From Candidatus Helarchaeota archaeon (lineage in GTDB: Archaea; Asgardarchaeota; Lokiarchaeia; Helarchaeales; RDOG01), in assembly GCA_019058315.1 (NCBI GenBank), contig JAHPZH010000002.1, positions 1,339,726-1,403,725 on the forward strand: a stretch of 64,000 nucleotides of DNA, in the 5' to 3' direction. Of this stretch, positions 32,787 to 60,174 are shown one piece after another. Each line of letters opens with the position of its first letter. Positions within the stretch are counted from its first letter, which is position 1. The notes beneath the pieces were generated by a model that saw only the letters and a program-made list of their open reading frames with translations, was not told the DNA's origin and made no database searches. A program made the translations under genes and the position numbers.

Positions 32787-33803
32787 TTAAACATTTGCTC
32801 GTTCAAAAAATTTTATTAATTCTTCTTGTAACTGAGCAAATTTTGGATATTTAACCTTAATTTTGTAAATATTCATCCCGACTAAATTTTTAATATCTTT
32901 ATCATGATTTGAAATCTTAATTTTATTAATAATTTCATCTACTATTAGAAAATCAGCTTGAAATTGCGTATAATGAATTATACAAGTTCCTTTTTTAATT
33001 TTTATAAAATTACGAAATACATTATTTGCATCCCTTTTTCTAAAATTCCATGTTTTTTGGCGATACTCATTTTCAATCTCTTTCAAAGCCTCTATTTCCG
33101 AATCTTTAAGGTCATCTTCAACTAATTTAGTTTTCAAAGTGGTTTCATAAGCGTTTTTCAATCCTGATATTGCTTCATCAACAGCTATTTGACGATTTAA
33201 CTCTTTATTGAGTGTTGTAATATTTTTTTCTAATTGGTTTTCCACTAAATCTTTAAATTTATTGCTAGGAACGTTTAAAATTTTGGAAAATTTTTCATAA
33301 TCAAAATCTAGAAGTATATTACCAACCATTACGCCTGCATTTTCAATCGAAACTGCGCCATTTCCTGAAATTTTTTTGTTATTTATTTGAATTTCATTAA
33401 AAACTATTTTGGAATTCAGATTTAAATCCTTTAAGAATTGGTTTGGCCCTTTTAGAGCAATTGAGTATAAATTTTTAATAGGCGATGGGAATCCAAATCC
33501 GTTAAGAATTACATTATAAAATACTTGATCTTTTTCTAAAAGGACTAGTCCTCCCCCTGCCAATCGTCTTACTAATGCAATTTTATTTTTTCCACAAAAA
33601 TCTAAATTTACTTCTTGATAAAAATTCTGATGATATCCACAACTTATTGAACTTTTATTTGTTGTAGTTAAAAGAATAATATTAGTTTGTGGAGTCTTGG
33701 AAATTTCCAAAGCTAACGCATGATATATAGCTTGAACTCGAATAGGTTCTAAATTCTTTAATATAACTAAACGCCACTTTGCTTTTTCAGAAAGCATTTT
33801 CAA
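32787..33803 (-). CDS. lplA: lipoate-protein ligase A family
   Basis: GYHQ, VRRLAGGGLV, NEIQINNKKISGNG, GNILLDFD; short degenerate C-terminal domain. Confidence 0.85.
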   Translation of the reverse strand: MKMLSEKAKWRLVILKNLEPIRVQAIYHALALEISKTPQTNIILLTTTNKSSISCGYHQNFYQEVNLDFCGKNKIALVRRLAGGGLVLLEKDQVFYNVILNGFGFPSPIKNLYSIALKGPNQFLKDLNLNSKIVFNEIQINNKKISGNGAVSIENAGVMVGNILLDFDYEKFSKILNVPSNKFKDLVENQLEKNITTLNKELNRQIAVDEAISGLKNAYETTLKTKLVEDDLKDSEIEALKEIENEYRQKTWNFRKRDANNVFRNFIKIKKGTCIIHYTQFQADFLIVDEIINKIKISNHDKDIKNLVGMNIYKIKVKYPKFAQLQEELIKFFERANV

Positions 33804-33868
33804 GTCAGATTATTTTTTTTAAATTAGTACAAAATTTTAAAAAATAAAAAAAAAGCGATAGTTTTTAG

Positions 33869-34297
33869 TTATTCTTTTTTGACATTTTTGGCAATTTCTT
33901 CTTTTACCCAAGCTTGAAAATCCGGATTGTTCACTCGAAATAAATCATTTAACTCATCTTTATTATCTGGTTTTATTTTACAAATCCAACCTTCACCATA
34001 GGGTGAACTATTCATAATAGTTGCATCATCATCAAGTTCTTCATTTGCTTCTGTAACTATGCCATTGACTGGGCCATAAATTCTACCTACCCATTTTCCA
34101 GATTCAAGACTTGCGAATGGTTTTCCTTTTTTAACTTTTGTATCCTCATCCGGGAGTTCTACATAAATAAACTCCCCTGCAAGCTGTTGGGCATAATCGG
34201 TTACACCTAAAGTTAAAACATCTCCATCATCTCTTACCCAAAAATGATGCTCTGTATAATAAAGATCGTCTGGAAAATCAAATTCATCAATTTTCAT
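33869..34297 (-). CDS. gcvH: GcvH-family lipoyl-carrier protein (LbpA-like)
   Basis: PDDLYY..HFWV, GVTDYAQ, lipoyl Lys in LESGKWVG, NSSPYGEGWI; ATG 34297 after GGAGGAG RBS. Confidence 0.9.
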   Translation of the reverse strand: MKIDEFDFPDDLYYTEHHFWVRDDGDVLTLGVTDYAQQLAGEFIYVELPDEDTKVKKGKPFASLESGKWVGRIYGPVNGIVTEANEELDDDATIMNSSPYGEGWICKIKPDNKDELNDLFRVNNPDFQAWVKEEIAKNVKKE

Positions 34298-34308
34298 TAC
34301 TTCTCCTC

Positions 34309-34608
34309 CTACATACATGATACAATTTTATTTTCAACTACTAAATCTACAAATCCATCATAATCTATGAGCTTAACATAATCATTGAGATCTTTTATAG
34401 CTCGTGCTTCTAAGTCTGCTTTTAAAGCATAGACCGCAATTCCATTTTTTTTAAATTTATCTATAATGTCTTCTGTAACTATTCCTTTTTTCGCTGCAAT
34501 TACTGCATCTTCGATTAATATAACTTTTGAATCACTTGCTTTTTTTAAATTTGAGCACTGTTCCAAATCTCTCGTATTTAAGGGGGATTTACCCATTACA
34601 TATAACAT
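34309..34608 (-). CDS. dsrH: sulfurtransferase complex subunit DsrH/TusB
   Basis: KSP..LEQC, LIEDAV, YALKADLEAR, IDYDGFVDLV. Confidence 0.88.
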   Translation of the reverse strand: MLYVMGKSPLNTRDLEQCSNLKKASDSKVILIEDAVIAAKKGIVTEDIIDKFKKNGIAVYALKADLEARAIKDLNDYVKLIDYDGFVDLVVENKIVSCM

Positions 34609-34617
34609 TTTATCACC

Positions 34618-34977
34618 TCAAAACGGAATTATATGATCGAATTGGCTTAAAACTTTTTCAAAATTATCTGGTGTGCACACTTGAGCATCGATTGTTAATT
34701 GATCCACTGTAATATTACGCTCTTTGAGAGATTGTCCGCATACATAGAACTTTTCGATATCCATCTCTTTCAAATCGGGTAATACTTGTCCCAATGCTTT
34801 CATTTCTATTGCATCAGGTTTCTGATCCTTTAATGCAACAAAAACTCCATCATGTATAAATAAGACTTCAACATCTACTTCAAATGAAGCAAGCCCCATA
34901 ATAGCCCTAATTGCTTCTGCTGCATATACCGTTCCATAAGGGGATTTTCTTATCATAATCAGTACTTTTTTTGGCAT
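34618..34977 (-). CDS. dsrF: sulfurtransferase complex subunit DsrF/TusC
   Basis: RKSPYGT..AAEAIR, LFIHDGVF, SLKERNI. Confidence 0.88.
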   Translation of the reverse strand: MPKKVLIMIRKSPYGTVYAAEAIRAIMGLASFEVDVEVLFIHDGVFVALKDQKPDAIEMKALGQVLPDLKEMDIEKFYVCGQSLKERNITVDQLTIDAQVCTPDNFEKVLSQFDHIIPF

Positions 34978-34980
34978 ACT

Positions 34981-35349
34981 TTAACCTCCAAATGTAATAA
35001 ATCTGTCAGACTCCTCTACAAAATCAGCTAATTTTCCTAAACCAACAATTTTCGTATTTTCTATTGCTGCATCTTTTGTTAAACCTCTGAATTTAGAGCA
35101 CGCCACACAAGCATAGACTTTAACACCTTGAGCTCCAATTTCCGAAAACATTTTTGCAATATTTCTTTCCCCAGGTGGAACAATCTTCTTATTAATATTA
35201 TTTACTCCATCTGTGTAAAAGAAGACCCCTGTTATTTCATGACCTTTTTTAAGAGCTGCTTTAATGAAATGATATGCAGTATCACTTGCTTGATGCTGAT
35301 AAGGACCCGTTAATACCATTATTCCTATTTTCATTTTTTTCATTTCCAT
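34981..35349 (-). CDS. dsrE: sulfurtransferase complex subunit DsrE/TusD
   Basis: TGPYQHQASDTAYHF..AAL.KGH..GVFFY.DGV, active-site ACVAC..RG, GLG.L, DRFITFG. Confidence 0.9.
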   Translation of the reverse strand: MEMKKMKIGIMVLTGPYQHQASDTAYHFIKAALKKGHEITGVFFYTDGVNNINKKIVPPGERNIAKMFSEIGAQGVKVYACVACSKFRGLTKDAAIENTKIVGLGKLADFVEESDRFITFGG

Positions 35350-35376
35350 AAGTTTGTTATTTTTTCAATTTTTAAT

Positions 35377-35886
35377 CTATAATGATAAACAAGTAGGCGA
35401 TTCAGCAAGATTAAAACGAATATCTTCTTTAAAAGTTCTCAAGATAGCGTGAGAAACTATCTTTTGAATTCCCTCAATTTGTGCAATTCTTCTTGATAAT
35501 TTAGCTGCACTTTCTGCATCTACACATCTAGCCAAGCAAGCAAGTTGAAAATCGCCTGCAACCTGGTGAATATAGAGTAATTCGGGTACACAAGTTATAA
35601 GTTCTTTAGCAATTTTATTAATATCTGTTTTAGGATTTGTTTCTATAAAAAAACAAATCGGATAATTAAGGTTCAAAAAAGATGGATCAACAATTGTTGT
35701 ATACCCTATGATAATATTTTTACTCTCTAACTCCTTGATCCTTCTTCTGACTGTTGAAAAAGAAATATCTATATTCATTCTCTTTTTTAACAATCTAGCT
35801 ATTTCCCTTGGAGAATATCGCGAATCTTCTTGTAATAATTGAATAATTGCTGTATTCGTTTCATCCATCATTGAAAAATCTCTCAC
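35377..35886 (-). CDS. Lrp/AsnC family transcriptional regulator
   Basis: IIQLLQEDSR...STVRRRIKELE..IIIGYT HTH; VAGDFQ RAM domain. Confidence 0.9.
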   Translation of the reverse strand: MRDFSMMDETNTAIIQLLQEDSRYSPREIARLLKKRMNIDISFSTVRRRIKELESKNIIIGYTTIVDPSFLNLNYPICFFIETNPKTDINKIAKELITCVPELLYIHQVAGDFQLACLARCVDAESAAKLSRRIAQIEGIQKIVSHAILRTFKEDIRFNLAESPTCLSL

Positions 35887-35912
35887 TTTTTTTTATAGAT
35901 AAAGTTAACTTG

Positions 35913-35936
35913 ATTTATCATTATTTTTTGATAAAT
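35913..35936. promoter_or_regulatory. inverted repeat ATTTATCA-N8-TGATAAAT in the divergent promoter region (candidate operator)
   Basis: Perfect 8-bp inverted repeat next to the AAGTTAACTT palindrome (35902-35911). The AT-rich background lowers its significance. Confidence 0.4.
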
Positions 35937-36066
35937 AGTTTTTCTTGGTACAAACAATGTTTTTTAACTATAAAAAGTATTTCATTTGAAACAAAACCTT
36001 ATAAATAAAAAATCGATTGATTCGATAGTAACATAATTTTGGATCAAAAAATTTAGTGGTGATAAA

Positions 36067-36495
36067 ATGTTAAAAAAAATGGCTTTCATTGTTGGTAGCA
36101 AATCTTTTGAAAAAATGATGATGCCCTTAATAATTTCACAAACAGCTGATGCAATGGATGTAGAGGTTGATATATTTTTTACATTCTGGGGATTACAATT
36201 ATTGAAGAAAGGAGCCGCTGACAAAGCAAAAGTAGAAGGTATGCCATTTCCTATGAAAGGGATGGCTGCTTGGATGTTTAAAAAGAAATTGAAAAAATTT
36301 GGAACTGACAATCCCAGTGAAGTAATAAAAGAACTTGCTAGTAACGGTAACATTCATCTATACGCATGTAATATGACTATGGAATTGATGGGCGTTAAAA
36401 AGGAAGATTTAATTCCTGAAGTCGAGAAAGTATTAGGAGCAGCTAAATTCTTGGAAATTTGTGAGGACGCAGATCAAGTTCTAGTCTTCGCATAA
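36067..36495 (+). CDS. DsrE2/DsrE3-like sulfurtransferase (DsrE/DsrF/DrsH-like family)
   Basis: FFTFWGL, YACNMTMELMG, GAAKFL. Confidence 0.85.
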   Translation: MLKKMAFIVGSKSFEKMMMPLIISQTADAMDVEVDIFFTFWGLQLLKKGAADKAKVEGMPFPMKGMAAWMFKKKLKKFGTDNPSEVIKELASNGNIHLYACNMTMELMGVKKEDLIPEVEKVLGAAKFLEICEDADQVLVFA

Positions 36496-36523
36496 ACTTT
36501 TTTTATATTAGAGGTGTTAAATC

Positions 36524-37048
36524 GTGAGTCAAACAGATAACTCAAAAATAATTCAATCTGAAGAATTAGATCCAAATTTTAAATATGAGGTGGCTAAAGA
36601 ACATGGAGGAGAACAAATTAAATTTTGTTTTCAATGTGGAACATGTGCAGCAGGTTGTCCTATTCGCACAATAAATGGGGATTTTAATCCTCGCACCATA
36701 ATACGTAAAGTTCTATTAGGTATGAGAAAAGAAGTTTTGTCAGGGAAAGAAATTTGGATGTGTAGTAATTGTTATATCTGTTATGAAAGATGCCCCCAAA
36801 ACGTTAAATTTACTGATATTATTTTTGCACTCCGTAATATTGCGGCTAGGGAAGGTTATACTCACCCCTCATTTGTAAAACAAGCTGACCTTATTCGTAA
36901 TATGGGGAGATTATACGAAGTTACAGAGTTGGAATTAGATAAAAGAGAGGATTATAATCTACCTCCAATTAATCCAACCAATGATGATTTAGATAAAGTT
37001 TTTGAAAAAACCAAAATTGAGGATAAATTAAAGAAAAGTAGGGATTGA
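36524..37048 (+). CDS. hdrC: heterodisulfide reductase subunit C
   Basis: CFQCGTCAAGCP and WMCSNCYICYERCPQ. Confidence 0.92.
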   Translation: MSQTDNSKIIQSEELDPNFKYEVAKEHGGEQIKFCFQCGTCAAGCPIRTINGDFNPRTIIRKVLLGMRKEVLSGKEIWMCSNCYICYERCPQNVKFTDIIFALRNIAAREGYTHPSFVKQADLIRNMGRLYEVTELELDKREDYNLPPINPTNDDLDKVFEKTKIEDKLKKSRD

Positions 37049-37049
37049 A

Positions 37050-37943
37050 ATGAAGAAATATTCAATATTTATTGGTTGTACTATTCCTGTAAGAGCAATG
37101 AATTATGAAATCTCTTCTAGAAAAATATTAGAACATTTAAAAGTTCCAATTCAGGAAATCGAAGAATTTACTTGTTGTGGTTATCCTGTCGAATCGGTTG
37201 ATGAAATTAGTGCTTTAACTGCTTCCGCTAAAAATTTAGCACTTGCAGAAAAATATGATACTACAATAATAACTTTATGTAGTGCTTGTACAGGAACATT
37301 AACTAAAGCAAAGACAATCCTTGATGAAAATGAAGAATTGAGAAAAAAAGTAAATGAGAATCTTGAAGTTTTAGGATTAAAATATACTAAAAAGGCTGAA
37401 ATTAAACATATTGGTAAATTTATACTCGAAGATATTGGTCCAGAAAAATTAAAAGAATTAGTAGTTACTCCATTAACTGATTTAAGAATCGCTCCTCATT
37501 ATGGTTGTCATTTTAATAAACCATCAAATATTTTTAACAATTTTGACGATACAGAATATCCTACTTCTCTGAAAATAATAATAGAGGCTCTTGGAGCCAC
37601 TTATGTTGAATATGAAAATTTAATGCAATGTTGTGGTGGAGCTGTATTAGGAGTTGATGAGAGTCTTTCATTAACTCTAGCAAGAAATAAACTACAACAT
37701 ATTAAAGATGCTGAAGCTGATGCAATCACCTTAATTTGTCCTTTTTGTTACCTAATGTATGATGTTAATCAAAAAAGAATAGAAAAAGATAGTGAAGAGA
37801 AATTTAAAATTCCCGTCTTATTTTTACCACAATTAATTGGATTAGCATTTGGAATTGATCCCAAAGAATTGGGATTAAAATTGAATCGAGTAAAGCCCAA
37901 GGAAATTCTAGCAAAGATAGAAATGTTAAGTGGAGGTAAATAA
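37050..37943 (+). CDS. hdrB: heterodisulfide reductase subunit B
   Basis: GCTIP, TCCG, CSAC, HYGCH, QCCGG, CPFC: two intact CCG domains. Confidence 0.93.
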   Translation: MKKYSIFIGCTIPVRAMNYEISSRKILEHLKVPIQEIEEFTCCGYPVESVDEISALTASAKNLALAEKYDTTIITLCSACTGTLTKAKTILDENEELRKKVNENLEVLGLKYTKKAEIKHIGKFILEDIGPEKLKELVVTPLTDLRIAPHYGCHFNKPSNIFNNFDDTEYPTSLKIIIEALGATYVEYENLMQCCGGAVLGVDESLSLTLARNKLQHIKDAEADAITLICPFCYLMYDVNQKRIEKDSEEKFKIPVLFLPQLIGLAFGIDPKELGLKLNRVKPKEILAKIEMLSGGK

Positions 37944-37944
37944 T

Positions 37945-40900
37945 TTGAAAGATTTAGTTGGTGCTGTATTAGTTGTAGGAGGCGGTATAGCCGGAATTCA
38001 ATCATCATTGGACCTAGCCGATTCTGGATTTAAAGTATATCTGGCAGAATCATTACCAAGTATTGGAGGTAAAATGGCCCAATTAGATAAAACGTTTCCC
38101 ACTAATGATTGTAGCATGTGTATCTTGGCCCCTAAAATGGTAGCTTGTTCTAGGCATCCTAATATTGAAATTATGACTTATTCTGATATAGTTGATTTCA
38201 AGGGTGAACCTGGAAATTTTAGTGTAACCGTCAATAAGAGGGCAAGGTTTATTGATGAGTCAAAATGTATTGGCTGTGGAACATGTGCAGAAAAATGTCC
38301 TGTGAGAAAAAAGGTTTTTAATAAATTTAATGAAAATTTGGAATATAGAAGAGCAGCATACAGATTATTTCCTCAAGCAATACCTTCTACCTTTTTAATA
38401 GATAAAAATAATTGTATTTTTTTCAAAACGGGGAAATGTAAAGCATGTGAAAAATTCTGTCCTGCAGATGCAGTCGATTTTGAGCAGAAAGATGAATTAA
38501 TTACTTTAAATGTTGGATCTGTAATTATTTCTTCTGGTATGGGAGTATTTAACCCTTCAAAATTATCTAATTTTGGATATGGAATTGTTCCAGATGTCGT
38601 TACAAGCATAGAATTTGAAAGAATTTTAAGCGCTTCTGGACCTTATGGAGGACATATTTTACGACCTTCGGATAAAGTACCGCCTAAAAAGATAGCCTTC
38701 ATTCAGTGTGTTGGCTCACGAGATAGATCTATTAACAGAAATTTCTGTTCAGCAGCCTGTTGTATGTATGCGATTAAAGAAGCAATAATTGCTAAAGAAC
38801 ATGAACCCGATTTAGATATAACTATATATTACATGGATATAAGAGCATTTGGTAAAGATTTCGAAAAATATTATGAAAATGCTAAAAATATTGGAATAAA
38901 GTTTATAAGATCCCGCCCTACATCTGCTCAGAAACATGGAAACCAAATTAAAATAATATATGAGGATGATACAGAAGAACTTAAAGATGATTTATTTGAT
39001 TTAGTAGTCTTATCAGTAGGGTTTCAACATAATGAAAAAATACAAGAAATTGATAATATATTTAATTTACAAACAAATGAGTTTGGTTTTACAAAGACTG
39101 ATTCATTTAATCAAATGAAAACAAATACTAAAGGCGTATTCGCTTGTGGAATTAACTCAGGACCTAAAGACATTCCAGAAACTGTAACCCAAGCTTCCGC
39201 CGCTGCTGGTTGTGCAAGTGCTCTTTTAGCACCAACGAGAGGCAAATTAGTTAAACCTAAAGAATTACCTGAAGAAATTGATGTAAGAGGGCAACCTCCT
39301 CGAATAGGCGTCTTTATTTGTCACTGTGGAATTAATATCGGCAGTGTTGTAGACGTACCAAATGTTGTGGAATATGCAAAGACTCTACCAAATGTAGTCA
39401 TTGCTGATGAGAGCCTTTATACTTGCTCCGCAGATTCACAAAATTCAATTAAAGAGAAAATCAAAGAGTATAATCTAAATCGTGTTGTCATTGCTAGCTG
39501 CACGCCCCGTACTCATGAGCCACTGTTCCAAGAGACTATAAGAGAAGCGGGTTTAAATCGACACCTATTTGAAATGTGTAACATCCGGGAGCAAGATTCA
39601 TGGGTGCATATGAAGGAGCCAGAAAAAGCGACTCAGAAAGCAAAGGAATTAGTCCGAATGGCTACCTTAAAAGCAAATAAGATTGAACAATTACAAAAAA
39701 TCTCTCTTGATATTGTTAAAAAAGTCCTTGTAATCGGGGGAGGTATTGCCGGAATCACTGCAGCATTAGAAGCCGAAAAACAAGGATACCCAGTTTATTT
39801 GATTGAAAAAAAGGAAAAATTGGGTGGTTTACTTAATCAAATTCATATATTGCTAGATGATGAAGACCCTCAGAAATATCTAGCAGATAGAGTCGAAGAA
39901 TTAAACTCTAGCAAAAATATACAAGTTTTTCTAAATTCAGAATTAATTGAACTAGGAGGATTTGTAGGAAATTTCAAAGCTAAAATAAAAACAGGAGATA
40001 AAATTGAAGAATTAGATGCAGGAGCAGTTATTATCGCTACTGGAGGCGAACTATATAAGCCTATTGAATATTTCTATGGAAAAGATGAGCGTATAGTTAC
40101 TGGTCTAGAATTTGAAAAACTTATGTATGATAATCAAATAAAAGGGAAAACTTTCTGTTTTATTCAATGCGTAGGTTCACGAAATGACCAAAATCCTTAT
40201 TGTAATAGGATTTGTTGCTCGGAGGCAGTGAAAAATGCTATAAAAATTAAAGAAAAGATACCTGATTCAAACGTATTCATCCTTTACCGAGACTTACGTG
40301 TATATGGTTTAAATGAAAAATATTATGGAAAAGCAAGAGATATGGGTGTTTTTTTCATAAATTACGAACAAGAAAATCCTCCTGAAGCTAAACTTGAAAA
40401 TGGAGTATTAACTGTCGAAGTGTATGATAAAATATTGAAGAAATATATCAATATTAAACCCGATAATCTGATCTTGAGCGTTGGTATTGATCAGAGAACG
40501 AATTCTAAACCAAATTTTGCAGAACTTTCACAAAAATTGAAGGTTCCTTTAAATAAAGAAGGATTTTTCTTGGAAGCACATATGAAACTAAGACCGGTGG
40601 ATTTTGCAACAGATGGAATTTTTCTGTGTGGAACGGCCCATTGGCCAAAGCTGATACCTGAAACAATTTCACAAGCTATTGCTGCAGTGTCTAGAGCAAG
40701 TACAATCTTAAGTAAGGATTCAATCGAAACAGAAGGTATAGTTGCAAGAGTAAATCCTGTTCGATGCACGGCTTGTGGACTTTGTGTTGAAAATTGTCCT
40801 TATAATGCAATTGAATTACAAGAAGTAAGAGGAAAAAAGATCGCTGTTGTTAATGAAGCTCTTTGTAAGGGTTGTGGAACTTGCTCCGCAAATTGCAGAT

Positions 40901-40974: not shown

Positions 40975-41062
40975 TATGATTTATTAAAATGTATTAAAAT
41001 GAATAATAATATTAAAAATTTCATGGGTTTTATCCCAGATTTAAAATATGAGGTGATTTTAA

Positions 41063-41293
41063 ATGGTTGAAAAAGATGAAACATTAGATTGTTTAGGGCT
41101 ATTATGTCCGGCACCTATAGTTAAATTATCTAAAAAAGTTAAAAAAATGGAATCTGGAAAAATATTAGAACTTATCGCAGATGATGAGGGTGCTCTAGAA
41201 GACGTACCTGCCTGGTGCCGAAAAACAGGAAATGAACTAGTGGAAAGTAAAACTGAAAATGGTGTCTATAAGTTCTATGTCAAAAAAACATAA
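41063..41293 (+). CDS. tusA: sulfur carrier TusA
   Basis: LDCLGLLCPAP, ADDEGA..DVPAWC..TGN. Confidence 0.92.
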   Translation: MVEKDETLDCLGLLCPAPIVKLSKKVKKMESGKILELIADDEGALEDVPAWCRKTGNELVESKTENGVYKFYVKKT

Positions 41294-48028: not shown

Positions 48029-48034
48029 AAATAT

Positions 48035-48460
48035 ATGGTGTTAAAATTTCCCCCTAAACAACCAGTAATTTTAATGTTTGCCTGTATGAGATGCAGTTAT
48101 ACTGCTTCAGACCTAGCGGGAACATTAAAAATTCAATACAATCCAATAGTTCGTATTATAAGGGTTCCTTGTACGGGAAGAGTTGATATTATTCATATAT
48201 TGCGAGGAATAGTTGATGGTGCTGATGCAGTTCTCGTAGTTGGTTGTCATAAAGGGGATTGCGGATTTATTTCAGGAAATCTAGCTGCTGAAAGACGAGT
48301 GAAATTTGTAAGAAACTTATTAAAACAGATGAATATTAATCCTGATCGCGTTCAAATGCACTATGTTTCAGCCGCAGAAGCAAATGAAGTAGTCGAAATT
48401 ATAGAAAAAGTAGCTAAACAGGTTGCAAAAATGGGTCCCTCACCGTTTAGAACAAAATGA
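48035..48460 (+). CDS. mvhD: MvhD-like [2Fe-2S] subunit
   Basis: FACMRCSY..DLAG, VPCTGRV, GCHKGDC, VSAAE. Confidence 0.9.
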   Translation: MVLKFPPKQPVILMFACMRCSYTASDLAGTLKIQYNPIVRIIRVPCTGRVDIIHILRGIVDGADAVLVVGCHKGDCGFISGNLAAERRVKFVRNLLKQMNINPDRVQMHYVSAAEANEVVEIIEKVAKQVAKMGPSPFRTK

Positions 48461-48476
48461 AATGGAATTGATTTGA

Positions 48477-48764
48477 TTGGACGAAGAGAAAGAAAAATTA
48501 AACAAAATCATAAAACAATTGGAAAAAACAAAGGACAAGGATAGTAATGATTGGAAAAAAATCACTACAGAACACAAAGAAGAATTTGAAGTAATAAAGA
48601 AATCATATCGTGAAAAGCAAAATGAGTTGAGACAACTAATCCAAGATAAAAAAACAGGAATTGTAATGGGAGAAGAATTTGATAAAAGACTTGATGAATT
48701 ACAGAACGAATTAACTGAACTTGAATTCAAAATTTATAAATTAAGAATAGGCAGAGGCAGTTAA
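48477..48764 (+). CDS. small coiled-coil protein within the hdr operon
   Basis: 95 aa, highly charged heptad pattern, tight spacing on both sides. Confidence 0.65.
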   Translation: MDEEKEKLNKIIKQLEKTKDKDSNDWKKITTEHKEEFEVIKKSYREKQNELRQLIQDKKTGIVMGEEFDKRLDELQNELTELEFKIYKLRIGRGS

Positions 48765-48769
48765 AAATT

Positions 48770-50065
48770 ATGCAAAATAAAGCAATTATTATCGGAAATG
48801 GACTTGCTGCATTACAAGCAGCAATTGAATTAGCTGATTTAGGGGTCAAAGTAAGTCTCATTTCCAATCAAGACTCTTTAGGAGGTAATGCCAAGAATTT
48901 ATACAAGGCATTTCCAACAGATGATTGTTTTTACTGTATTAGTTCGATAAAGGAAAAATGTGGTATTAGAAAATGCTTTTATCGTGCAGGAATATGGGAA
49001 CATCCAAATATTGTAGTTTATTTAGATTCACAAATTTCAAAAATTGAAGGTGAAATAGGAAATTTTAAAATTGCCCTTAAACAAAACCCCCAGTATATTG
49101 ACCATAATAAATGCATTCAATGTGGGGAATGTGAACGTATATGCCCAATATTAATGGATATTGATGATGAATTGGGAATTAGAAAAAGAAAAGCAATTTA
49201 TCATAGATTACAAAATATTCCATATTCTTATTTCATTCAGAGAGAATATTGCGATTCAAATTGTACAAAATGTGAAGAAATCTGCCCTATAAATGCTATT
49301 AATTTAAATTCCTCATCTGAAAATCATAATTTAACAGCTAGTATAATCATAATCGCCAGTTCTTATTCCGAATATAACCCTTCTGAATTAAAAGAATATC
49401 ATTACGGTGAGTTTCCTAATGTTATTACTCAAGTTCAATTAGCTAGAATGTTAGATCCTACTGGTCCGACTCAAGGAAAATTAGTAAGAATGACCGATTT
49501 AAAACCAGCAAAGAAGATTTTAATGTTACAATGCGTCGGATCACGGGATGACAATACAAATAAATATTGTAGTGAGATATGTTGCACTTTTGCGTGCAAA
49601 CATGCCGAAATTATAAAAAAAGAACGTGAAAATCAAGCGCAAATAACTATTGTATACAAAGATATTAGAACAGATGGATTTTATGAGATAAATTATAGAA
49701 ATTGTAGAGAATTGGGAATTGATTTCTTAAAAGGTCACATATCTGATATTGTAGAAAAAGACAATACATTACAAATTTTAGTTTTTGATGTTATTTTAAA
49801 TAGGCATATCGAATTTGAAGTGGATTTATTAATTTTAACTTGTGCTTTAGTTCCCTCCGATCTTTCTAAATCGATTATGAACCAATTTAATATCGAATTA
49901 AAGGAAAATGGATTTCCCAATACGAGTTTTGATCTAATTGAAAGTTCAAGAAAGGGAATATTTCTATGCGGTTCTTCAATTAAGCCAATTTCAATTCCAG
50001 AATCAATTAATCTGGCAAAGGCAGCTGCATTTAAAGCATTTCAAAGTTTAAGGAGTGATAGTTGA
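48770..50065 (+). CDS. HdrA N-terminal module (QmoA-like), degenerate FAD motif
   Basis: GNGLAA, FPTDDCFYC, CIQCGEC..CP, QCVGSRD, CSEICC. Confidence 0.85.
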   Translation: MQNKAIIIGNGLAALQAAIELADLGVKVSLISNQDSLGGNAKNLYKAFPTDDCFYCISSIKEKCGIRKCFYRAGIWEHPNIVVYLDSQISKIEGEIGNFKIALKQNPQYIDHNKCIQCGECERICPILMDIDDELGIRKRKAIYHRLQNIPYSYFIQREYCDSNCTKCEEICPINAINLNSSSENHNLTASIIIIASSYSEYNPSELKEYHYGEFPNVITQVQLARMLDPTGPTQGKLVRMTDLKPAKKILMLQCVGSRDDNTNKYCSEICCTFACKHAEIIKKERENQAQITIVYKDIRTDGFYEINYRNCRELGIDFLKGHISDIVEKDNTLQILVFDVILNRHIEFEVDLLILTCALVPSDLSKSIMNQFNIELKENGFPNTSFDLIESSRKGIFLCGSSIKPISIPESINLAKAAAFKAFQSLRSDS

Positions 50066-52208
50066 AAAAATGGATAGAGATTCTAGCAAAATTCCGGTTT
50101 TTATTTGTACTTGCGGAGACAAATTAAAAGAAAAATTAGATTATGAAAAAATAAGAAAAGAAATTCAGGAATTTCATTCTCCCAACCCGGTTAAAATACT
50201 TAAATTTCTGTGTATTGAGGAAGATAAAAATAAAATTCTCGAGACTTTAGATAAATCTACAAATAAATTTGTTGTTGCAGCTTGTACACCACAGAAATTA
50301 GAATATGAATTAAGAACATTTTTAAGAACTCATGGAAAAGACCCATTTTCATTTGATATTGCAAATATTCGTGAGCATTGTGCTTGGGTGCATGAAAATA
50401 AAGCCCTTGCAACCGAAAAAGCAATTGCTTTAATTAAATCTTCAATAGAAAGAATAAAATATGCTCCAAAAATTAATGAAGATAAAATCAAGATTCAAAA
50501 ACATGTCCTAATTATTGGAGCAGGCATTTCTGGACTACAAACTGCTATAAACCTAAAATCTTTGGGTTATAAAGTTGTAGTATTGGAAAAAGAATCTTCA
50601 GCAGGTGGACATGTTGGTAAATTATCTAAAATTTATCCATTTGGCATAAAAGGTAAGGTATTAATTGATGAGAAATTGGATTTAATTGAAAAAAATAATA
50701 TTAATATCATATACAATTGTCAAGTCAATTGGATTAGCGGTTCATTTGGTAATTTTAAATGCAATATAACAATAGATTCAGGGGAAGAACAAATTAAAAA
50801 CACCTCTGCAATTGTTATAGCTACTGGTCATAAAGTATTTGAACCTAATAACCTTTTACAATATAAATATGGAATATCACCTGATATTATAACACTTTTC
50901 GAACTATCAAATATTTTAAATAATAATAGTTCGTCAAAAAAAGAATTAATTAGATTAAGTAACGGAAAACCAGTTAAAAATATTCTTATGGTTCAATGTG
51001 TAGGCTCTAGAGATGTTAACAATTTTGAATACTGCAGTAAATATTGTTGTACCTCAGCTATAGATCATGCCATTGAAGTAAAGGAGAAATTTAAAGATGT
51101 TAATATTACCATAAATTACTTCGATATCCGCACACCATTTGAACAAGAGGCAATATATCGTGAAGCTAGGGGACTGGGAATTGATTTTTTCAGGGGTAAA
51201 ATCGGGGAGATAAGTATTGATGATAACAATCAATTAATTACTCAAGCTATGGATACTATAATTGGAAATTTAGTAGAATTAAAAAGTGATTTAGTAGTTT
51301 TGTCTACTGCATTAATACCTAATCTAGAAAATAATCAATTATTCGAATTATTAAATTTAGAATTCAGAAATGGAGGGTTTATTAAAGAATATTATGATAA
51401 ATTGAAAAAACTAGAAACAAAAAGAAAAGGAATCTATGTCTGTGGAACAGTTTCTGGTCCAAAAACAATTCCACAGTGCATTTATGAAGCTCATGCTGTT
51501 AGTTTAAAAGTTTTTCAAGAAATAGGGGATGGAGAAATAACAAAAAATCTAACGGTTACCACCATAGATGAAGATTTATGTAATGGTTGCGAACTTTGTG
51601 CGAGAATTTGCCCTTTTAACATTCCAATCATGAAAGAAGTGGGGAACGAATTAAAAGCTGAAATAGATCCCTTTAGTTGCAAGGGCTGTGGAATTTGTGC
51701 TAGTATTTGTCCAACAGGAGCAGCACAATTACAGACAAACTTAAGGGATCAATTAATTATACAAATAAAAGCCATTTTAAAAGATATAAAGGAATCAAAA
51801 GATTCCATAATCTTGGGATTTGTTTGTGATGAATGTGGGTACGCTACAATAGATGCAGCTGGTATATTGAATACACCATATTCAGAAAAGGTGAGATTCA
51901 TTAGATTACCTTGTATTGGGCGTCTTTCCCTACTGGATATATTTACTGCATTTGCAGAAGGTGCAAGTGGAGTTCTACTTATTGGATGTGCAAAAGAAAG
52001 ATGCCATTATCTTAAAGGAAGTTCAAAAACTGAAATTGAAGTCGCAATTACAAAGGAGATTTTGAAGGAAATAGGCTGGGAGCCTGAAAGAATTGAATAT
52101 CATGGTATGTTTCATGCAGAACCAGAGAAATTTCTTAATGCAGTGAAAGAAATGGTTGAAAAGATGAATAAATTGGGTATTACCAAGATTTTAAAAAATA
52201 AGGAATGA
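50055..52208 (+). CDS. HdrA C-terminal module fused to MvhD (QmoB-like)
   Basis: CTCG, ACTP, NIREHCAWVH, GAGISG, QCVGSRD, 2x[4Fe-4S], FVCDECGY..LPCIGR..GC..RCHY; probable ATG 50070. Confidence 0.88.
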   Translation: MIVEKMDRDSSKIPVFICTCGDKLKEKLDYEKIRKEIQEFHSPNPVKILKFLCIEEDKNKILETLDKSTNKFVVAACTPQKLEYELRTFLRTHGKDPFSFDIANIREHCAWVHENKALATEKAIALIKSSIERIKYAPKINEDKIKIQKHVLIIGAGISGLQTAINLKSLGYKVVVLEKESSAGGHVGKLSKIYPFGIKGKVLIDEKLDLIEKNNINIIYNCQVNWISGSFGNFKCNITIDSGEEQIKNTSAIVIATGHKVFEPNNLLQYKYGISPDIITLFELSNILNNNSSSKKELIRLSNGKPVKNILMVQCVGSRDVNNFEYCSKYCCTSAIDHAIEVKEKFKDVNITINYFDIRTPFEQEAIYREARGLGIDFFRGKIGEISIDDNNQLITQAMDTIIGNLVELKSDLVVLSTALIPNLENNQLFELLNLEFRNGGFIKEYYDKLKKLETKRKGIYVCGTVSGPKTIPQCIYEAHAVSLKVFQEIGDGEITKNLTVTTIDEDLCNGCELCARICPFNIPIMKEVGNELKAEIDPFSCKGCGICASICPTGAAQLQTNLRDQLIIQIKAILKDIKESKDSIILGFVCDECGYATIDAAGILNTPYSEKVRFIRLPCIGRLSLLDIFTAFAEGASGVLLIGCAKERCHYLKGSSKTEIEVAITKEILKEIGWEPERIEYHGMFHAEPEKFLNAVKEMVEKMNKLGITKILKNKE

Positions 52209-54442
52209 TGGATGATATGGGTATTCCAGTTGACATTGCACCAAAAAGAAAGATTTTTTATGAATTACTCATAAAAATTCTGAAATTACAACAAAAAGAA
52301 GAAATTGAGATCGAATTCGAAGACCTAAAAACACTCGAATCGAATTTAAAAGAATTCAAAAATGAATTTCCAAAATTTAATTCCAATTTATTATCAAAAA
52401 TTGAAGATTTTCTACATAAATTAAACGTTTTAGAAAAAGTTAACAATCAACTATTTTTAAAAGAAACAATAGAGAAATTAAATCAAGTCGAAATTAAAAC
52501 AGATATTGAAAAAAACGCAATTTTTAAATTAAAAGAATTAATTGAAACAAGAATTAATACTATTGAGGGAACAGTTGCCCAAATTTCAATAGATAAAAAA
52601 GTAATTTCATTGTTGCTTAAAGATATTAAAAATATTACAGATTTATTAAATTCAAAAATTAAACCTGTTTATGAGCATTTTCTTAAAAAACAAAGCATAA
52701 AAGAAGACGAATTAAATAAAATTTTAGATAATTATATTCAAATTAAAGAAATTACGGAATTTAAAGAATTTCAAGAGAAATTTAAATTAATTTCAAGAAT
52801 AATGCGTGATAAAGGACTAATTTATTCTGTTTCTCAAATAAATAAATCGTTAAATGAAAGTAAAATCGATGATAAACGTGCAAATGTTCTACTTCATAAA
52901 AATATATTCCCTAAATTGGATCAAGCGATAATTTTATTCATCATTAATACACTCGGTCCTCAAACAATAGAGGATCTATACCAAAAAACAGGAATTGCAA
53001 AAGATAGATTATTTCAAGGAATTCTTAGAATTCTAGATAGAAAAGAAATTGAAATCTTAAAGGAAAAAGAAGGACAACCTGTTTATACTAAAATTAAATT
53101 AAAATCAAATATACTTGAATCAATAGATAAGAATTTGAAAATAATTATTAATATTAGAGACAAAATCGATCAAGATTCTGAATTATTTAACAAAATCATA
53201 GAAAATTTAAATGAATTTAGACAATATTTGGATTCAATTGATGAATTTGATGAAAAAATCTTCCAAGATTCTATTTTTAAATTAAAATCTAGTGTTCAAA
53301 AATTAATAAACTTGATTCCTCAATTTTCTCTTGACAAGAAAGAGGAAAAGATAATAGATAGAATTGATGGTATGATTGAAGCCCTCAAGCTTTATCGCCT
53401 TAATTTAACATTTGAGAAAAGAGAAAATTTAAAGGAAATCAGTACAGAACTAAAATATAAAGTATCTAAATTAATTTTAGATTCTATGGATCAAGATTTC
53501 GAAAGGGGACAAATAATAGCTACTATAAAAAAGAAAGGTCCATTAAATATAATTGACCTTTCTAAAGCTACCGGTCTACAAAGAGATAAGATATATTCTC
53601 ATATGATTCAATTAAAAACTGATAATAGAATTAAAATAATAGGTTCTAAAGAAGGATATGATTTATACGATGTTTCTAGAGTTAAAACTGAAGAAGAAAA
53701 ACTAATTGAAGATTTTTTAAATATCATTCTCGAATTCAAAATCATTCAAACAAACTATGAAAATGCGATATTAGATGTTAAATTTAATCTTGATAAAATT
53801 AACCTTTATTTGGAACAATTCCTTCAAAAATTAAATAATATAGTAAATATAAAATTCTTAAATCAACAATTTAGCGAAGAAATCTATAAAGAATACTCAA
53901 AAAGAGTTAAGGGAGTAATAGATACACTTACCAGTATTAAAGGGAAGGTCAAGGTTAAAAAAGCCGAAATTAATTTTGACGAATTAGTTCCTATTTTAGT
54001 GCCTTCAACAGAAGATGAATTTTCACATTTAATAGAACCAAAGCAACTGATAGGCTTTGGTACTATAAAAAGTAATGAAAAGAGATGCTTATCTTGCCGC
54101 AGTTGCCAAGATATATGTGAAGAATCAGCTGTAACCTTAAAAAATGTCTGGAATTTACCGCTTATTTTTGAGCTTTCAGAAGAAGAATTGAATGATCTTC
54201 CAGGATCAAAAAAGATGTTATTTAATATCATAAAAAAAATTGCCCAAAAGAAACCTTCGAATATAATCAATATACCTGATGGGGCAATAGGATATGGAAG
54301 ACCCGAATTTGAGCCGATTAAATGCATCGCTTGTAAAAAATGTGTTGAAAGATGCCCAAATGAGGCAATAGAATTTGAAGAAGTGTGGAATTTTCCAGAA
54401 ATTATCAAATCAGCCTCTAAATCCTTAACTATGGAGGATTAA
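52205..54442 (+). CDS. coiled-coil protein with two winged-helix-like segments and a C-terminal 2x[4Fe-4S] domain
   Basis: GPQTIEDLYQKTGI and GPLNIIDLSKATGL HTH-like segments; CLSCRSCQDIC and CIACKKCVERCP. Confidence 0.75.
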   Translation: MMDDMGIPVDIAPKRKIFYELLIKILKLQQKEEIEIEFEDLKTLESNLKEFKNEFPKFNSNLLSKIEDFLHKLNVLEKVNNQLFLKETIEKLNQVEIKTDIEKNAIFKLKELIETRINTIEGTVAQISIDKKVISLLLKDIKNITDLLNSKIKPVYEHFLKKQSIKEDELNKILDNYIQIKEITEFKEFQEKFKLISRIMRDKGLIYSVSQINKSLNESKIDDKRANVLLHKNIFPKLDQAIILFIINTLGPQTIEDLYQKTGIAKDRLFQGILRILDRKEIEILKEKEGQPVYTKIKLKSNILESIDKNLKIIINIRDKIDQDSELFNKIIENLNEFRQYLDSIDEFDEKIFQDSIFKLKSSVQKLINLIPQFSLDKKEEKIIDRIDGMIEALKLYRLNLTFEKRENLKEISTELKYKVSKLILDSMDQDFERGQIIATIKKKGPLNIIDLSKATGLQRDKIYSHMIQLKTDNRIKIIGSKEGYDLYDVSRVKTEEEKLIEDFLNIILEFKIIQTNYENAILDVKFNLDKINLYLEQFLQKLNNIVNIKFLNQQFSEEIYKEYSKRVKGVIDTLTSIKGKVKVKKAEINFDELVPILVPSTEDEFSHLIEPKQLIGFGTIKSNEKRCLSCRSCQDICEESAVTLKNVWNLPLIFELSEEELNDLPGSKKMLFNIIKKIAQKKPSNIINIPDGAIGYGRPEFEPIKCIACKKCVERCPNEAIEFEEVWNFPEIIKSASKSLTMED

Positions 54443-54443
54443 A

Positions 54444-54980
54444 ATGACAGATATTAATTCAGATATAGAATTAAAAGAACCAATAAAAATGGAAGATGTA
54501 GATCCTGAATTTAAGTATGAAATTGCCGACACTGATGAAGGTAAAACTATCTTATATTGCTATCAATGTGGTACCTGTTCAAGTAGTTGCCAGAGTGCAT
54601 GTGCTGATTTATATCCTCATCAAATAATTCGAATGGCATTACTTGGACTAAAAAAAGAAGTGTTGAATTCAAAATCCATATGGATATGTACAACCTGCTA
54701 TGATTGCATAGAACGCTGTCCACAAGGAGTTGAAGTTGCAAATGTGCTTTTTGCGATTAAAAATATTGCCGTAAAAGAAAACATTATCCCTAAAGGTTTT
54801 AAATTATTTGCAAAAAATATTTTCAGGATGGGTAGGGGCGCTGAAATTACAGATATGCAAGAAGATGAAAGAGATGATTTGGATCTGCCACCAGTTCCAA
54901 AAGTCGATAAAGAAGCCATTAAAAAAATGTTAAAAAAAGTAAATTTTGAGGAAATGATTGAATCTAAAGAAGGAAAATAA
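54444..54980 (+). CDS. hdrC: heterodisulfide reductase subunit C (second copy)
   Basis: CYQCGTCSSSC and WICTTCYDCIERCPQ. Confidence 0.92.
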   Translation: MTDINSDIELKEPIKMEDVDPEFKYEIADTDEGKTILYCYQCGTCSSSCQSACADLYPHQIIRMALLGLKKEVLNSKSIWICTTCYDCIERCPQGVEVANVLFAIKNIAVKENIIPKGFKLFAKNIFRMGRGAEITDMQEDERDDLDLPPVPKVDKEAIKKMLKKVNFEEMIESKEGK

Positions 54981-54982
54981 AA

Positions 54983-55861
54983 ATGAAATATGCTTATTAC
55001 TTAGGTTGCACTGTTCCTGCAAGAGTTAATCAATATGACGCAGCAGTTCGTAAATCTTCTGAAAAATTAGATATTGAGTTAATTGATATAGAAGGGGCAG
55101 GTTGTTGTGGTCCAGTTAACATTAAATCTGTAAATTATAAAGCTTGGATACTATTAGGTGCAAGAAATATCGCCTTAGCTGAAAAAATGGGTTTGGATAT
55201 CGTTACTCTATGTAATGGATGCTATTCAACTATGAAAGAAGTTGATCATTATTTAAAGAATAATGGAACCTTATTAAAAGAAGTTAATGAAATTTTAAAA
55301 GAAGAAAATCTATCATTTTCTGGAAAAATTAAAATTAAACAATATATAGAAATTATTTTGGATTTTGGGCTCGATAAAATCAAACAAAAATTCGTAAAAT
55401 CTTGTGATGGACTTAAAACTGCCGTACATTATGGCTGTCATTTGTTAAAACCCTCTAATGTGGCACAACTAGATAATCCAGAAAGTCCACAAATATTAGA
55501 TCAATTAACAGAGCTTACTGGAGCAAAAAGCATCGACTGGCAATATAAAAATAAATGCTGCGGTGCTCCAGTTTTAGCAATAAATGAAAAACTCGCTTTA
55601 AAAATGATGCATGAAAAATTAATTGGTGCAAAAAACGCTGGAGTAGATTGCTTCGTAACTGTATGCCCCTTTTGTTTTATCGAATTAGATTTAATGCAAC
55701 TTAAGGTGCAAACAGAATTTAAAGAAAAATTTGACATTCCTGTAATTCTATTGCCACAATTGTTTGGATTGGCTATGGGGCTTGAATCTGATGCATTGGG
55801 GCTTGATCTACACCGAATTGAAACTGATATTATTTTAGGATTTTTTAAAAATAAGGATTGA
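54983..55861 (+). CDS. hdrB: heterodisulfide reductase subunit B (second copy)
   Basis: YLGCTVP, GCCG, CNGC, HYGCH, KCCG, CPFC. Confidence 0.93.
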   Translation: MKYAYYLGCTVPARVNQYDAAVRKSSEKLDIELIDIEGAGCCGPVNIKSVNYKAWILLGARNIALAEKMGLDIVTLCNGCYSTMKEVDHYLKNNGTLLKEVNEILKEENLSFSGKIKIKQYIEIILDFGLDKIKQKFVKSCDGLKTAVHYGCHLLKPSNVAQLDNPESPQILDQLTELTGAKSIDWQYKNKCCGAPVLAINEKLALKMMHEKLIGAKNAGVDCFVTVCPFCFIELDLMQLKVQTEFKEKFDIPVILLPQLFGLAMGLESDALGLDLHRIETDIILGFFKNKD

Positions 55862-60141: not shown

Positions 60142-60174
60142 AATTAATTTGAGATTTTTATTTTAAAAATTATT

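Follow-up and report, generated by a model that had tools for sequence, protein, structure and literature searches.

A 64,000-nucleotide stretch of the genome of a Candidatus Helarchaeota archaeon (contig JAHPZH010000002.1; hereafter, the window) carries, at positions 32787-55861, a gene cluster in which heterodisulfide reductase (Hdr) genes stand together with genes for a sulfur relay, a lipoyl carrier of the GcvH family (H-protein) and a lipoate-protein ligase. This module is real and conserved, and on balance we lean towards a reading in which lipoyl-GcvH, coupled to a persulfide relay, serves HdrBC as its dithiol/disulfide partner, probably in the reductive direction. The system would then best be read as an anaerobic version of the sHdr-LbpA principle built on methanogen-type enzymes, and its lipoyl-protein link is a directly testable candidate for the 'unidentified heterodisulfide' of non-methanogen Hdr (PMC11291895). 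The sHdr-LbpA principle itself was known before, and a link between GcvH and HdrB had merely been speculated upon, for Culexarchaeia (PMC9723716); the H-protein group with Gly-Lys at the lipoyl site to which the window protein belongs, its cross-domain linkage to HdrB and the complete relay-lipoyl-Hdr operon have no description in the open-access literature searched.

Genes were identified from an open reading frame (ORF) map together with Pfam and NCBIfam profile scans. They form two divergent runs, one on the minus strand from 35886 down to 32787 (lrp/asnC, dsrE, dsrF, dsrH, gcvH, lplA) and one on the plus strand at 36067-55861 (dsrE2-like, hdrC1, hdrB1, hdrA1, tusA, hdrA2-mvhD, hdrA3, mvhD, an ORF of 95 amino acids (aa), a split hdrA pair, orf745, hdrC2 and hdrB2). 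Every gene named in a first-pass annotation of this DNA was found intact and at agreeing coordinates, its counts of two HdrBC pairs, three large HdrA proteins plus one split pair and three MvhD modules were correct, and the shared intergenic region is exactly the 180 bp it had given (35887-36066); the Lrp/AsnC regulator, the 95-aa ORF and a 745-aa iron-sulfur (Fe-S) protein are additions to that list. The gene order is real and not an assembly artefact, because ~97%-identical contigs from other sediment metagenomes bridge its junctions: those spanning 33060-34611, 34711-36401 and 35807-38303 cross the lplA-gcvH-dsrH, dsrF-lrp-dsrE2 and dsrE2-hdrA1 junctions, respectively. The many short joints between the paralogous hdrA genes, with sides of 20-30 nt, were set aside as cross-mapping noise.

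The lipoyl carrier is encoded on the minus strand by a 149-aa ORF at 34318-33869 (GCV_H, PF01597, E = 6e-40), whose homologues begin at Met8, making 34297 the likely start and 142 aa the likely length. Its Lys75 aligns with the lysine of the ESVK lipoylation motif in the Thermus and pea GcvH structures, a residue that we take to be the lipoyl lysine of those solved proteins. The window protein reads ESGKW where the canonical sequence is ESVKA and has an extra C-terminal helix; in an alignment of 26 Hdr-linked homologues, Gly74-Lys75 was invariant and the C-terminal helix conserved. Across a set of 88 H-proteins, all 32 that are Hdr-adjacent carried Gly-Lys at the lipoyl site and none of the 35 canonical ones was Hdr-adjacent, counts that are descriptive given that kin are not independent. 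Canonical H-proteins, including another host copy (C5:1073782), formed a clade with Shimodaira-Hasegawa-like approximate likelihood ratio test (SH-aLRT) support of 100, and the window copy fell outside it; in a constrained tree test, the canonical one-clade topology was not rejected (approximately unbiased test, p-AU = 0.39).

Profile searches of the host genome (5.79 Mb in 12 contigs, 94% complete) returned six GCV_H matches and no match to GcvP (PF02347), GcvT (PF01571), DsrC/TusE (PF04358) or NIR_SIR (PF01077), the family of DsrAB, so that the absence of dsrC, gcvP, gcvT and the DsrAB family, previously noted for the window, now extends to the genome. The first-pass annotation had left room for a GcvH that groups with the glycine-cleavage system. 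Because the window H-protein lies outside the canonical clade and neither GcvP nor GcvT has a match in the genome, it is, judged from its sequence, no glycine-cleavage component, and appears rather to be a third kind of H-protein, neither canonical GcvH nor LbpA. A ribosomal L15e gene close to another of the host H-protein copies, and the Asgard titles (Promethearchaeota, Hodarchaeota, Hermodarchaeota and Harpocratesius) borne by relatives of DsrE2 and HdrB1, support the Asgard assignment of the host. As a separate observation, in loci of the Asgard family f31 (L183, L187-L191, L193-L194, L196-L197, L200) an ESGKWTG-type H-protein gene has genes for an AAA_22 ATPase and a Rad51-like protein as its conserved neighbours on either side, away from hdr, in genomes that also encode GcvP and canonical GcvH.

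Last in the minus run, at 33803-32787, is the gene for a 338-aa LplA-type lipoate-protein ligase (PF21948, LplA-B_cat, E = 5e-30). It scored 104 bits on TIGR00545, under the cut-off, matched the LplAB profile partially and contains KKISGNGA, in which the lysine is presumably the catalytic one. The Lip_prot_lig_C domain was undetected in it, unlike in a paralogue at C5:1203019. Pairs of lplA and gcvH adjoining hdr were also found in six other loci (L009, L010, L192, L257, L270 and L274). The two-domain paralogue belongs to a host locus of its own (L151, C5:1203019-1207471), 2 kb upstream of the sole NiFe hydrogenase large subunit detected, with two small SCP2/alkyl-sulfatase-C-like genes in between.

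Adjoining gcvH in the same run is a complete DsrEFH set: DsrE/TusD (35349-34981; PF02635, E = 5.6e-31), DsrF/TusC (34977-34618; PF02635) and DsrH/TusB (34608-34309; PF04077, E = 2.8e-21), all on the minus strand, passed the TusD, TusC and TusB equivalog cut-offs with 89.9 bits on TIGR03012 (cut-off 89.25), 96.7 bits on TIGR03010 (94.15) and 83.2 bits on TIGR03011 (49.2). DsrE, whose Cys81 is kept in 60 of 61 relatives, is likely the persulfide-carrying subunit; Cys18 of DsrH is present in the window copy and not conserved among Asgard relatives. The plus run opens with a DsrE2-like sulfur carrier (36067-36495; PF13686, E = 3e-31) that is 53-60% identical to DsrE2 of a common Asgard relay-Hdr operon and has a cysteine, Cys101, kept in 44/44 relatives, and further along it encodes the sulfur carrier TusA (41063-41293; PF01206, E = 1.3e-26), with Cys15 of the CPAP motif kept in 58/58 relatives. 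Passing the GcvH, TusD, TusC and TusB profile cut-offs would suit a housekeeping role and nothing more, in which GcvH works in glycine cleavage or the reductive glycine pathway and TusA-DsrEFH, as TusABCD, in tRNA 2-thiolation or cofactor sulfur supply. We consider this exceedingly improbable: GcvP, GcvT and TusE/DsrC have no genome match, the canonical-type GcvH at C5:1073782 is encoded elsewhere, Asgard genomes with GcvP hold a canonical GcvH besides the Gly-Lys-type copy, and the synteny with hdr is conserved.

Proteins with CCG domains, among them HdrB, HdrD and DsrK, use non-cubane clusters to reduce disulfides or trisulfides. The first such protein of the plus run, the catalytic subunit HdrB1 (37050-37943), has two CCG domains with both motifs complete, and the ten cysteines concerned (residues 10, 42, 43, 77, 80, 153, 194, 195, 230 and 233) were invariant across 36 homologues. 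Its best solved relatives are methanogen HdrB (E = 3.6e-62); on TIGR03288, HdrB1 scored 263.5 bits and HdrB2 298.1 bits, both under the equivalog cut-off of 345. Its partner HdrC1 (36524-37048, plus; Fer4 families), a ferredoxin subunit with 2x[4Fe-4S], scored 122.8 bits on TIGR03290, below the cut-off of 160, and 72.7 bits on the qmoC model, far from the 300 that defines QmoC. Compared with the gcvH-linked HdrC proteins of bacteria, its identity is 43-51% for most loci and 28-32% for L007-L010. A complex prediction for HdrB1 with the H-protein scored 0.15, which gives no verdict, and we used it neither for nor against an interaction.

We sampled the conservation of this linkage from both partners. 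The 80 best genome loci picked by HdrB1 alone all belonged to non-methanogens (Anaerolineae, Atribacterota, Sumerlaeota, WOR-3, Syntrophaceae, Aerophobetes, Bacillota, Thermoplasmata, Theionarchaea and Bathyarchaeia, among others); a GcvH-like gene, nearly always of the E[ST]GKW type, lay within 4 kb in 28 of them, and in 4 of the 80 the whole set of hdr, tusA, dsrE2, dsrEFH and gcvH formed one operon. Two WOR-3 metagenome-assembled genomes (MAGs) and one other bacterial MAG (L208, L220, L221) share such an operon in the order hdrA-hdrC-hdrB-tusA-dsrE-like-dsrE2-dsrE-dsrF-dsrH-gcvH, and a Clostridia MAG (L274) carries hdrA/mvhD, a NiFe hydrogenase large subunit, hycI, hdrB, dsrE2, tusA, dsrE, dsrF, dsrH, gcvH and lplA. 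Conversely, the 23 closest genome homologues of the window GcvH, all from Deltaproteobacteria/Thermodesulfobacteriota MAGs, adjoin hdrCB or HdrD-like CCG genes in 22 cases, the remaining one lying at a contig end. In these contexts gcvH lies either directly beside hdrCB, which follows QmoA/QmoB-like hdrA genes, or between genes for HdrD-like CCG proteins, where a GlcD-like FAD oxidase and in some cases lplA are also encoded. Many of the Deltaproteobacterial hdrCB-gcvH loci have, directly 3' of gcvH, a gene for an 874-aa protein in which a GlcD-like FAD oxidase is fused to a ferredoxin and a CCG domain (L011:3535-6159, with homologues in L007-L012, L240, L243, L249, L253, L254 and L276).

The same linkage was found among Asgard archaea. 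One metagenome relative (L169), whose HdrB1 is 80% identical, repeats the divergent layout, with gcvH-dsrH-dsrF-dsrE-lrp facing dsrE2-hdrC-hdrB-hdrA-mvhD-hdrA-mvhD-tusA; in a 70% relative (L168), hdrB-hdrC-gcvH diverges from the same hdrCB-hdrA array and the relay is missing; and a sister genus (L156) has gcvH-gcvH-hdrB-hdrC-hdrA. Family f28 shows hdrA-mvhD-gcvH-hdrC-hdrB, family f33 (L119) dsrE-dsrF-dsrH-tusA-tusA-gcvH-hdrC, and a second locus of the host itself (L149, C5:633464-643585) hdrC-hdrB-gcvH-gcvH. The gene set thus recurs in L169, L119, WOR-3-type bacteria and the Clostridia MAG, so that the lack of conserved linkage which the first-pass annotation said would refute its reading is not what we find; adjacency of gcvH and hdrCB recurs in at least four HdrB clades; and the parts are conserved together across both domains, which supports the earlier claim that they form a single functional unit. 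At the second host locus, a 2033-aa ORF without a Pfam family precedes hdrC, the gene for the beta subunit of acetyl-CoA synthase (ACS), cdhC, lies on the opposite strand, the two gcvH genes encode divergent Gly-Lys-type copies with the motifs QAGKG and EAGKG, and a TtuA-like PP-loop protein is encoded nearby.

These neighbourhoods bear on whether sulfur chemistry takes place on the lipoyl arm at all. Lipoyl-GcvH could be a pure two-electron shuttle that connects HdrBC with further dehydrogenases or with the Wood-Ljungdahl pathway, for instance as the 'second acceptor' of Hdr-containing complexes that resemble methylene-tetrahydrofolate (THF) reductase, with the relay serving Hdr independently. 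Most bacterial gcvH-hdr loci indeed lack sulfur carriers and have GlcD-like FAD oxidases, either joined to CCG domains or encoded beside them, or, in a minority, MetV-like genes; the second host locus sets its two gcvH beside the ACS beta subunit gene; the common Asgard relay-Hdr operon has no gcvH; and GcvH has been considered as a redox partner in the acetogen literature (PMC8760232). We treat the shuttle as a serious rival and yet a rather improbable one, given that in four independent lineages (the window's own family, f33, the WOR-3-type bacteria and Clostridia) gcvH directly follows dsrH, or dsrH and tusA, inside an hdr operon.

The host's own metabolism raises another alternative. Beyond the window we looked for mcr/acr genes and lipA, which the earlier annotation had singled out, and found three McrA-like ORFs of 602-612 aa (PF02249, E = 8e-25 to 3e-19; matches at C5:377506-377883, C3:198869-199246 and C11:316902-317273) as well as LipA at C3:395050. 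The genome also encodes at least ten HdrB paralogues, one E2 with a lipoyl domain, which is a conventional lipoate client, and one NiFe hydrogenase large subunit, away from the locus; McrA-like genes were present in the two same-order genomes tested, G123 and G126. By its gene content the host thus appears to be a Helarchaeales-like Asgard lineage bearing an alkyl/methyl-CoM reductase, and because of the three McrA-like genes, the heterodisulfide of coenzymes M and B (CoM-S-S-CoB) would be made or used in it. The array could accordingly be the ordinary CoM-S-S-CoB machinery of an alkane-oxidising Asgard archaeon, regenerating the heterodisulfide from CoM-SH and CoB-SH or reducing it, with the relay, H-protein and ligase as separate neighbours. 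Helarchaeota are reported to depend on HdrABC for the recycling of CoM and CoB (PMC6478937), HdrB and HdrA match methanogen enzymes best among solved structures, and orf745-hdrC2-hdrB2 is shared with relatives of the order and, as a weak observation, unseen in the best loci of G128, a genome without an McrA match. We nevertheless judge this explanation unlikely, since the HdrB1 clade is made up of non-methanogens, bacteria, which have no methyl-CoM reductase (MCR), carry the same set in single operons, the layout is conserved in L169, and both HdrB fall under the TIGR03288 cut-off. Moreover, gcvH and hdr are linked in two Asgard genomes without an McrA match, G307 and G399; the first of these, from family f28 (8 contigs, 100% complete), has eight GCV_H copies, one of them inside its hdr operon, and zero matches to GcvP or McrA.

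Coupling of lipoyl-GcvH to HdrBC and the persulfide relay, the reading we prefer, would make the locus one cytoplasmic redox system of three modules under an Lrp-type regulator: HdrB1C1, perhaps with HdrB2C2, wired to tandem HdrA flavoproteins and MvhD; a dedicated Gly-Lys-type lipoyl protein with its own LplA ligase; and a persulfide relay of TusA, the DsrE2-like protein and DsrEFH. In a first step, the non-cubane clusters of HdrB would reduce or oxidise a protein-bound lipoamide dithiol/disulfide in place of CoM-S-S-CoB. In a second, the dihydrolipoyl arm would attack a cysteine persulfide on DsrE, DsrE2 or TusA, releasing H2S and re-forming the lipoyl disulfide. Lipoyl-GcvH would thereby take the role of CoM-S-S-CoB towards HdrB and that of DsrC towards DsrEFH, and the net reaction, in which flavin-based bifurcation or confurcation is possible, would reduce sulfane sulfur with electrons drawn from ferredoxin, H2 or another donor linked to Hdr. 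We infer that HdrB acts on lipoyl-GcvH because genes of this HdrB clade are repeatedly accompanied by those of just one thiol/disulfide carrier, a lipoyl protein, and of its ligase, and that the relay feeds the same arm because the carrier directly follows a relay with conserved active-site cysteines in four lineages. The reductive direction, which we regard as no more than probable, is favoured because the Clostridia operon includes a hydrogenase, HdrA is of the methanogen type and the sulfite-reductase family has no match. A wider claim, that lipoyl-GcvH is the general substrate of this HdrBC clade in non-methanogenic anaerobes (Asgard archaea, Thermoplasmata, WOR-3, Deltaproteobacteria and Clostridia) and that the system is an H2- or ferredoxin-driven persulfide reductase acting as an electron sink of Helarchaeales, is advanced only tentatively, and we think it more doubtful.

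Several observations weigh against the coupled reading. On the side of the H-protein, the window copy passes the NCBIfam GcvH cut-offs, its sole cysteine is internal, in WICKIK, with the two LbpA-defining cysteines absent, and 21 of 53 Gly-Lys-type H-proteins, mostly from Asgard family f31, lie away from hdr. Linkage is also incomplete: in 52 of the 80 loci of the HdrB1 type, GcvH is missing from the surrounding 4 kb, a close relative at 73% (L166) lacks both gcvH and the relay, and Hdr and the relay can operate together with no lipoyl protein, because the widespread Asgard relay-Hdr operon has no gcvH. HdrB1 and HdrB2 both resemble methanogen HdrB (E ~1e-62). Some of the at least ten HdrB paralogues must serve CoM-S-S-CoB because three McrA-like genes are present, and part of the array, above all orf745-hdrC2B2, may do so. 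The midpoint potential of lipoamide, ~-290 to -325 mV, is far below that of CoM-S-S-CoB, and because of this much lower value classical bifurcation from H2 to ferredoxin would be harder.

Clade memberships indicate how the locus may have been assembled. A widespread Asgard operon, for which the open-access literature searched gave no description, has lrp divergent from tusA-dsrE-dsrF-dsrH-dsrE2-hdrC-hdrB-x-hdrA-x-mvhD, often with an extra tusA downstream, in ~20 loci (L114-L118, L127-L146) of Promethearchaeota, Hodarchaeota, Hermodarchaeota and Harpocratesius, the names under which relatives of DsrE2 and HdrB1 are titled; its HdrB forms a separate clade (SH-aLRT 100). HdrB1 belongs to a clade (SH-aLRT 99) of 17 gcvH-linked bacterial HdrB together with matches from Thermoplasmata, Theionarchaea and BRC1, and HdrB2 clusters with same-order relatives (SH-aLRT 97) in a group that joins the gcvH-linked HdrB of f28 (SH-aLRT 95). 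The trees were built without LbpA, sHdrB and methanogen HdrB, so the kinship of HdrB1 and HdrB2 to sHdrB1/B2 and to true CoM-S-S-CoB reductases is read from PDB E-values and nearest-relative taxa only. The locus would thus combine an Asgard relay module, a gcvH-associated Hdr module and an order-specific orf745-hdrC2B2 because of these memberships, and the word 'hybrid' used in the first-pass annotation is apt in a further sense, with DsrE2 of the common Asgard type and HdrB1 from a clade shared with bacteria. In the best loci of each genome there is a hint that the HdrB2 clade tracks the presence of MCR, orf745-hdrC2-hdrB2 being unseen in those of G128, which is weak as an observation.

The remaining Hdr genes, all on the plus strand, encode large and partly fused flavoproteins. 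HdrA1 (37930-40974) is a tandem double HdrA of 1014 aa with Rossmann motifs at residues 17 and 603 and Fe-S motifs, far closer to methanogen HdrA (5odc_A, E = 1.8e-205) than to sHdrA (6tjr_A, E = 1.1e-42). HdrA2-MvhD (41544-44981) is a 1145-aa fusion with FAD motifs at residues 9 and 589 and an FlpD domain at residues 1011-1132 (E = 3.9e-52), and HdrA3 (44978-48028) is, from domain and motif scans, another tandem double HdrA, of 1016 aa; it is followed by a stand-alone MvhD (48035-48460; PF02662, E = 1e-44). Because each large HdrA has two FAD-binding motifs, these proteins can be described as tandem fusions of QmoA-like and QmoB-like units. The split pair consists of a QmoA-like HdrA4 N-half of 431 aa (48770-50065), with one FAD motif and an inserted ferredoxin, and a QmoB-like C-half fused to MvhD, of 717 aa (50055-52208; FAD motif at 155, FlpD at 586-708, E = 3.5e-39); splits of the same form occur in L166 and L168.

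Between MvhD and the split pair lies the charged 95-aa ORF (48477-48764), which has no Pfam match and zero paralogues in the host genome and whose membership of the system is uncertain. The run ends with orf745 (52205-54442), HdrC2 (54444-54980; Fer4 families) and HdrB2 (54983-55861; two CCG domains). The 745-aa orf745 product has a long helical N-part and Fer4 as its only match (residues 627-736), with a split C-terminal 2x[4Fe-4S]; its nearest atlas cluster is an Asgard Fer4 protein. The triad is conserved in four same-order relatives (L155, L158, L159 and L160), always with orf745 first, and HdrC2 is 43-57% identical to the same-order copies.

At the head of the minus run, the Lrp/AsnC-type regulator (35886-35377; HTH_24, HTH_AsnC-type, AsnC_trans_reg) holds the position it has in L169 and in many Asgard loci, where lrp is divergent from a tusA-dsrEFH-dsrE2-hdrCB operon. 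The divergent promoter region of 180 bp (35887..36066) is rich in A and T. Boxes resembling TATA lie near 35890-35903 and 35997-36012, and positions 35913-35936 hold a palindrome, ATTTATCA-N8-TGATAAAT; these elements may have a regulatory role.

Beyond hdrB2, on the minus strand, are two tandem 377-aa paralogues (55919-57052 and 57127-58260) with a Cys-rich middle and a C-terminal 2x[4Fe-4S]. Many hdr operons of Asgard archaea and Anaerolineae encode short relatives of the ferredoxin part, placed between hdrA and mvhD. The wider flanks (27012-31253 and 58338-61677) encode a polyferredoxin and a pair of Molydop_binding and Molybdopterin oxidoreductase proteins in an FwdD/FwdB-like order, together with an enoyl-CoA hydratase, a protein of the HpaB/4-hydroxybutyryl-CoA-dehydratase family and a sulfatase.

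In Asgard archaea and many uncultured anaerobes, the genes for HdrABC and MvhD rank with the most abundant and most strongly expressed genes of energy metabolism. A lipoyl protein and its ligase beside HdrBC, in at least four HdrB clades and both domains, provide a concrete, cloneable candidate for a substrate, and the disulfide substrate of Asgard HdrABC has been called 'unidentified' (PMC11291895). If this were borne out, the lipoate-Hdr principle would reach beyond aerobic and microaerobic sHdr-LbpA sulfur oxidisers to strictly anaerobic enzymes of the bifurcation type, sediment sulfur cycling would gain a cytoplasmic sulfur-reduction route, and the result could bear on the second acceptor of Hdr-containing methylene-THF reductases. 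Helarchaeota have no recognised electron sink, and a cytoplasmic sulfane-sulfur reductase would be useful to such an alkane oxidiser (PMC6478937).

Among characterised systems, sHdr of sulfur oxidisers requires LbpA, a dedicated ligase and TusA/DsrE carriers, and its type I clusters comprise shdrC1B1AHC2B2 with lbpA, sLpl(AB), lipS1/S2, tusA and dsrE3 (PMC6067878, PMC11094781). The window has the parallel parts in one locus, with two HdrCB pairs, HdrA, a GcvH-like lipoyl protein, an adjacent ligase, and TusA and DsrE-family carriers, and this likeness is what an oxidative route would build on, in which sulfane sulfur delivered by TusA and DsrE becomes sulfite on an Hdr/lipoyl-protein complex. 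We find that route very unlikely. The window HdrAs are tandem forms of 1014-1145 aa of the large methanogen type with three MvhD, in place of an sHdrA of ~340 aa; the carriers are DsrEFH and a DsrE2-like protein and not DsrE3; and the lipoyl protein keeps the aligned lysine without the two conserved cysteines, near the N- and C-termini, that together with the lipoyl lysine define LbpA (PMC6067878). The genome has no match to the sulfite-reductase family, the hosts belong to strict-anaerobe lineages in which the direction is likely reductive, one homologous operon includes a hydrogenase, and Asgard genomes are unlisted in sHdr surveys (PMC11094781). Radical S-adenosylmethionine lipS genes are absent from the locus, with LipS1/S2 not searched genome-wide, and LipA is encoded elsewhere. 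On HdrA type and LbpA cysteines, then, the predicted proteins place the locus outside sHdr.

Like the methanogen MvhADG-HdrABC complex (5odc), the locus combines an HdrB with two non-cubane CCG motifs with HdrC, HdrA and MvhD; unlike it, the window has no mvhAG, its HdrA are tandem or split QmoA/QmoB-like proteins, HdrB and HdrC score below the equivalog cut-offs, and a lipoyl protein and relay are added. With DsrEFH-DsrC and the E. coli TusBCD-TusE system it shares a complete DsrE/F/H with the DsrE active-site cysteine, and TusA, whereas DsrC/TusE and the DsrAB family have no match and a lipoyl carrier follows dsrH instead. Paired HdrA-like proteins, one of them fused to MvhD, with HdrCB recall the QmoAB-HdrBC arrangements, noted with a role still undefined (PMC10504309), and type IV MetFV-HdrCBA-MvhD (PMC10504309, PMC8760232); no AprAB, QmoC or MetF was seen in the locus in general scans, and for apr-like genes, none among the scanned window ORFs, no dedicated aprAB search was made.

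In Culexarchaeia, likewise non-methanogenic archaea, a GcvH gene stands amid Hdr genes in an Ehe/HdrA2B2C2 cluster, and its authors raised the speculation that HdrB finds its disulfide on GcvH; that cluster has a membrane hydrogenase, SdhA and CdhA and is without DsrEFH, TusA and LplA, and the report describes no H-protein subfamily or cross-domain conservation (PMC9723716). The common Asgard relay-Hdr operon differs in having no gcvH or lplA, a single-unit HdrA of ~400 aa and an HdrB of a separate clade, and shares with the window the same regulator, the same relay proteins and the same Hdr/MvhD partners.

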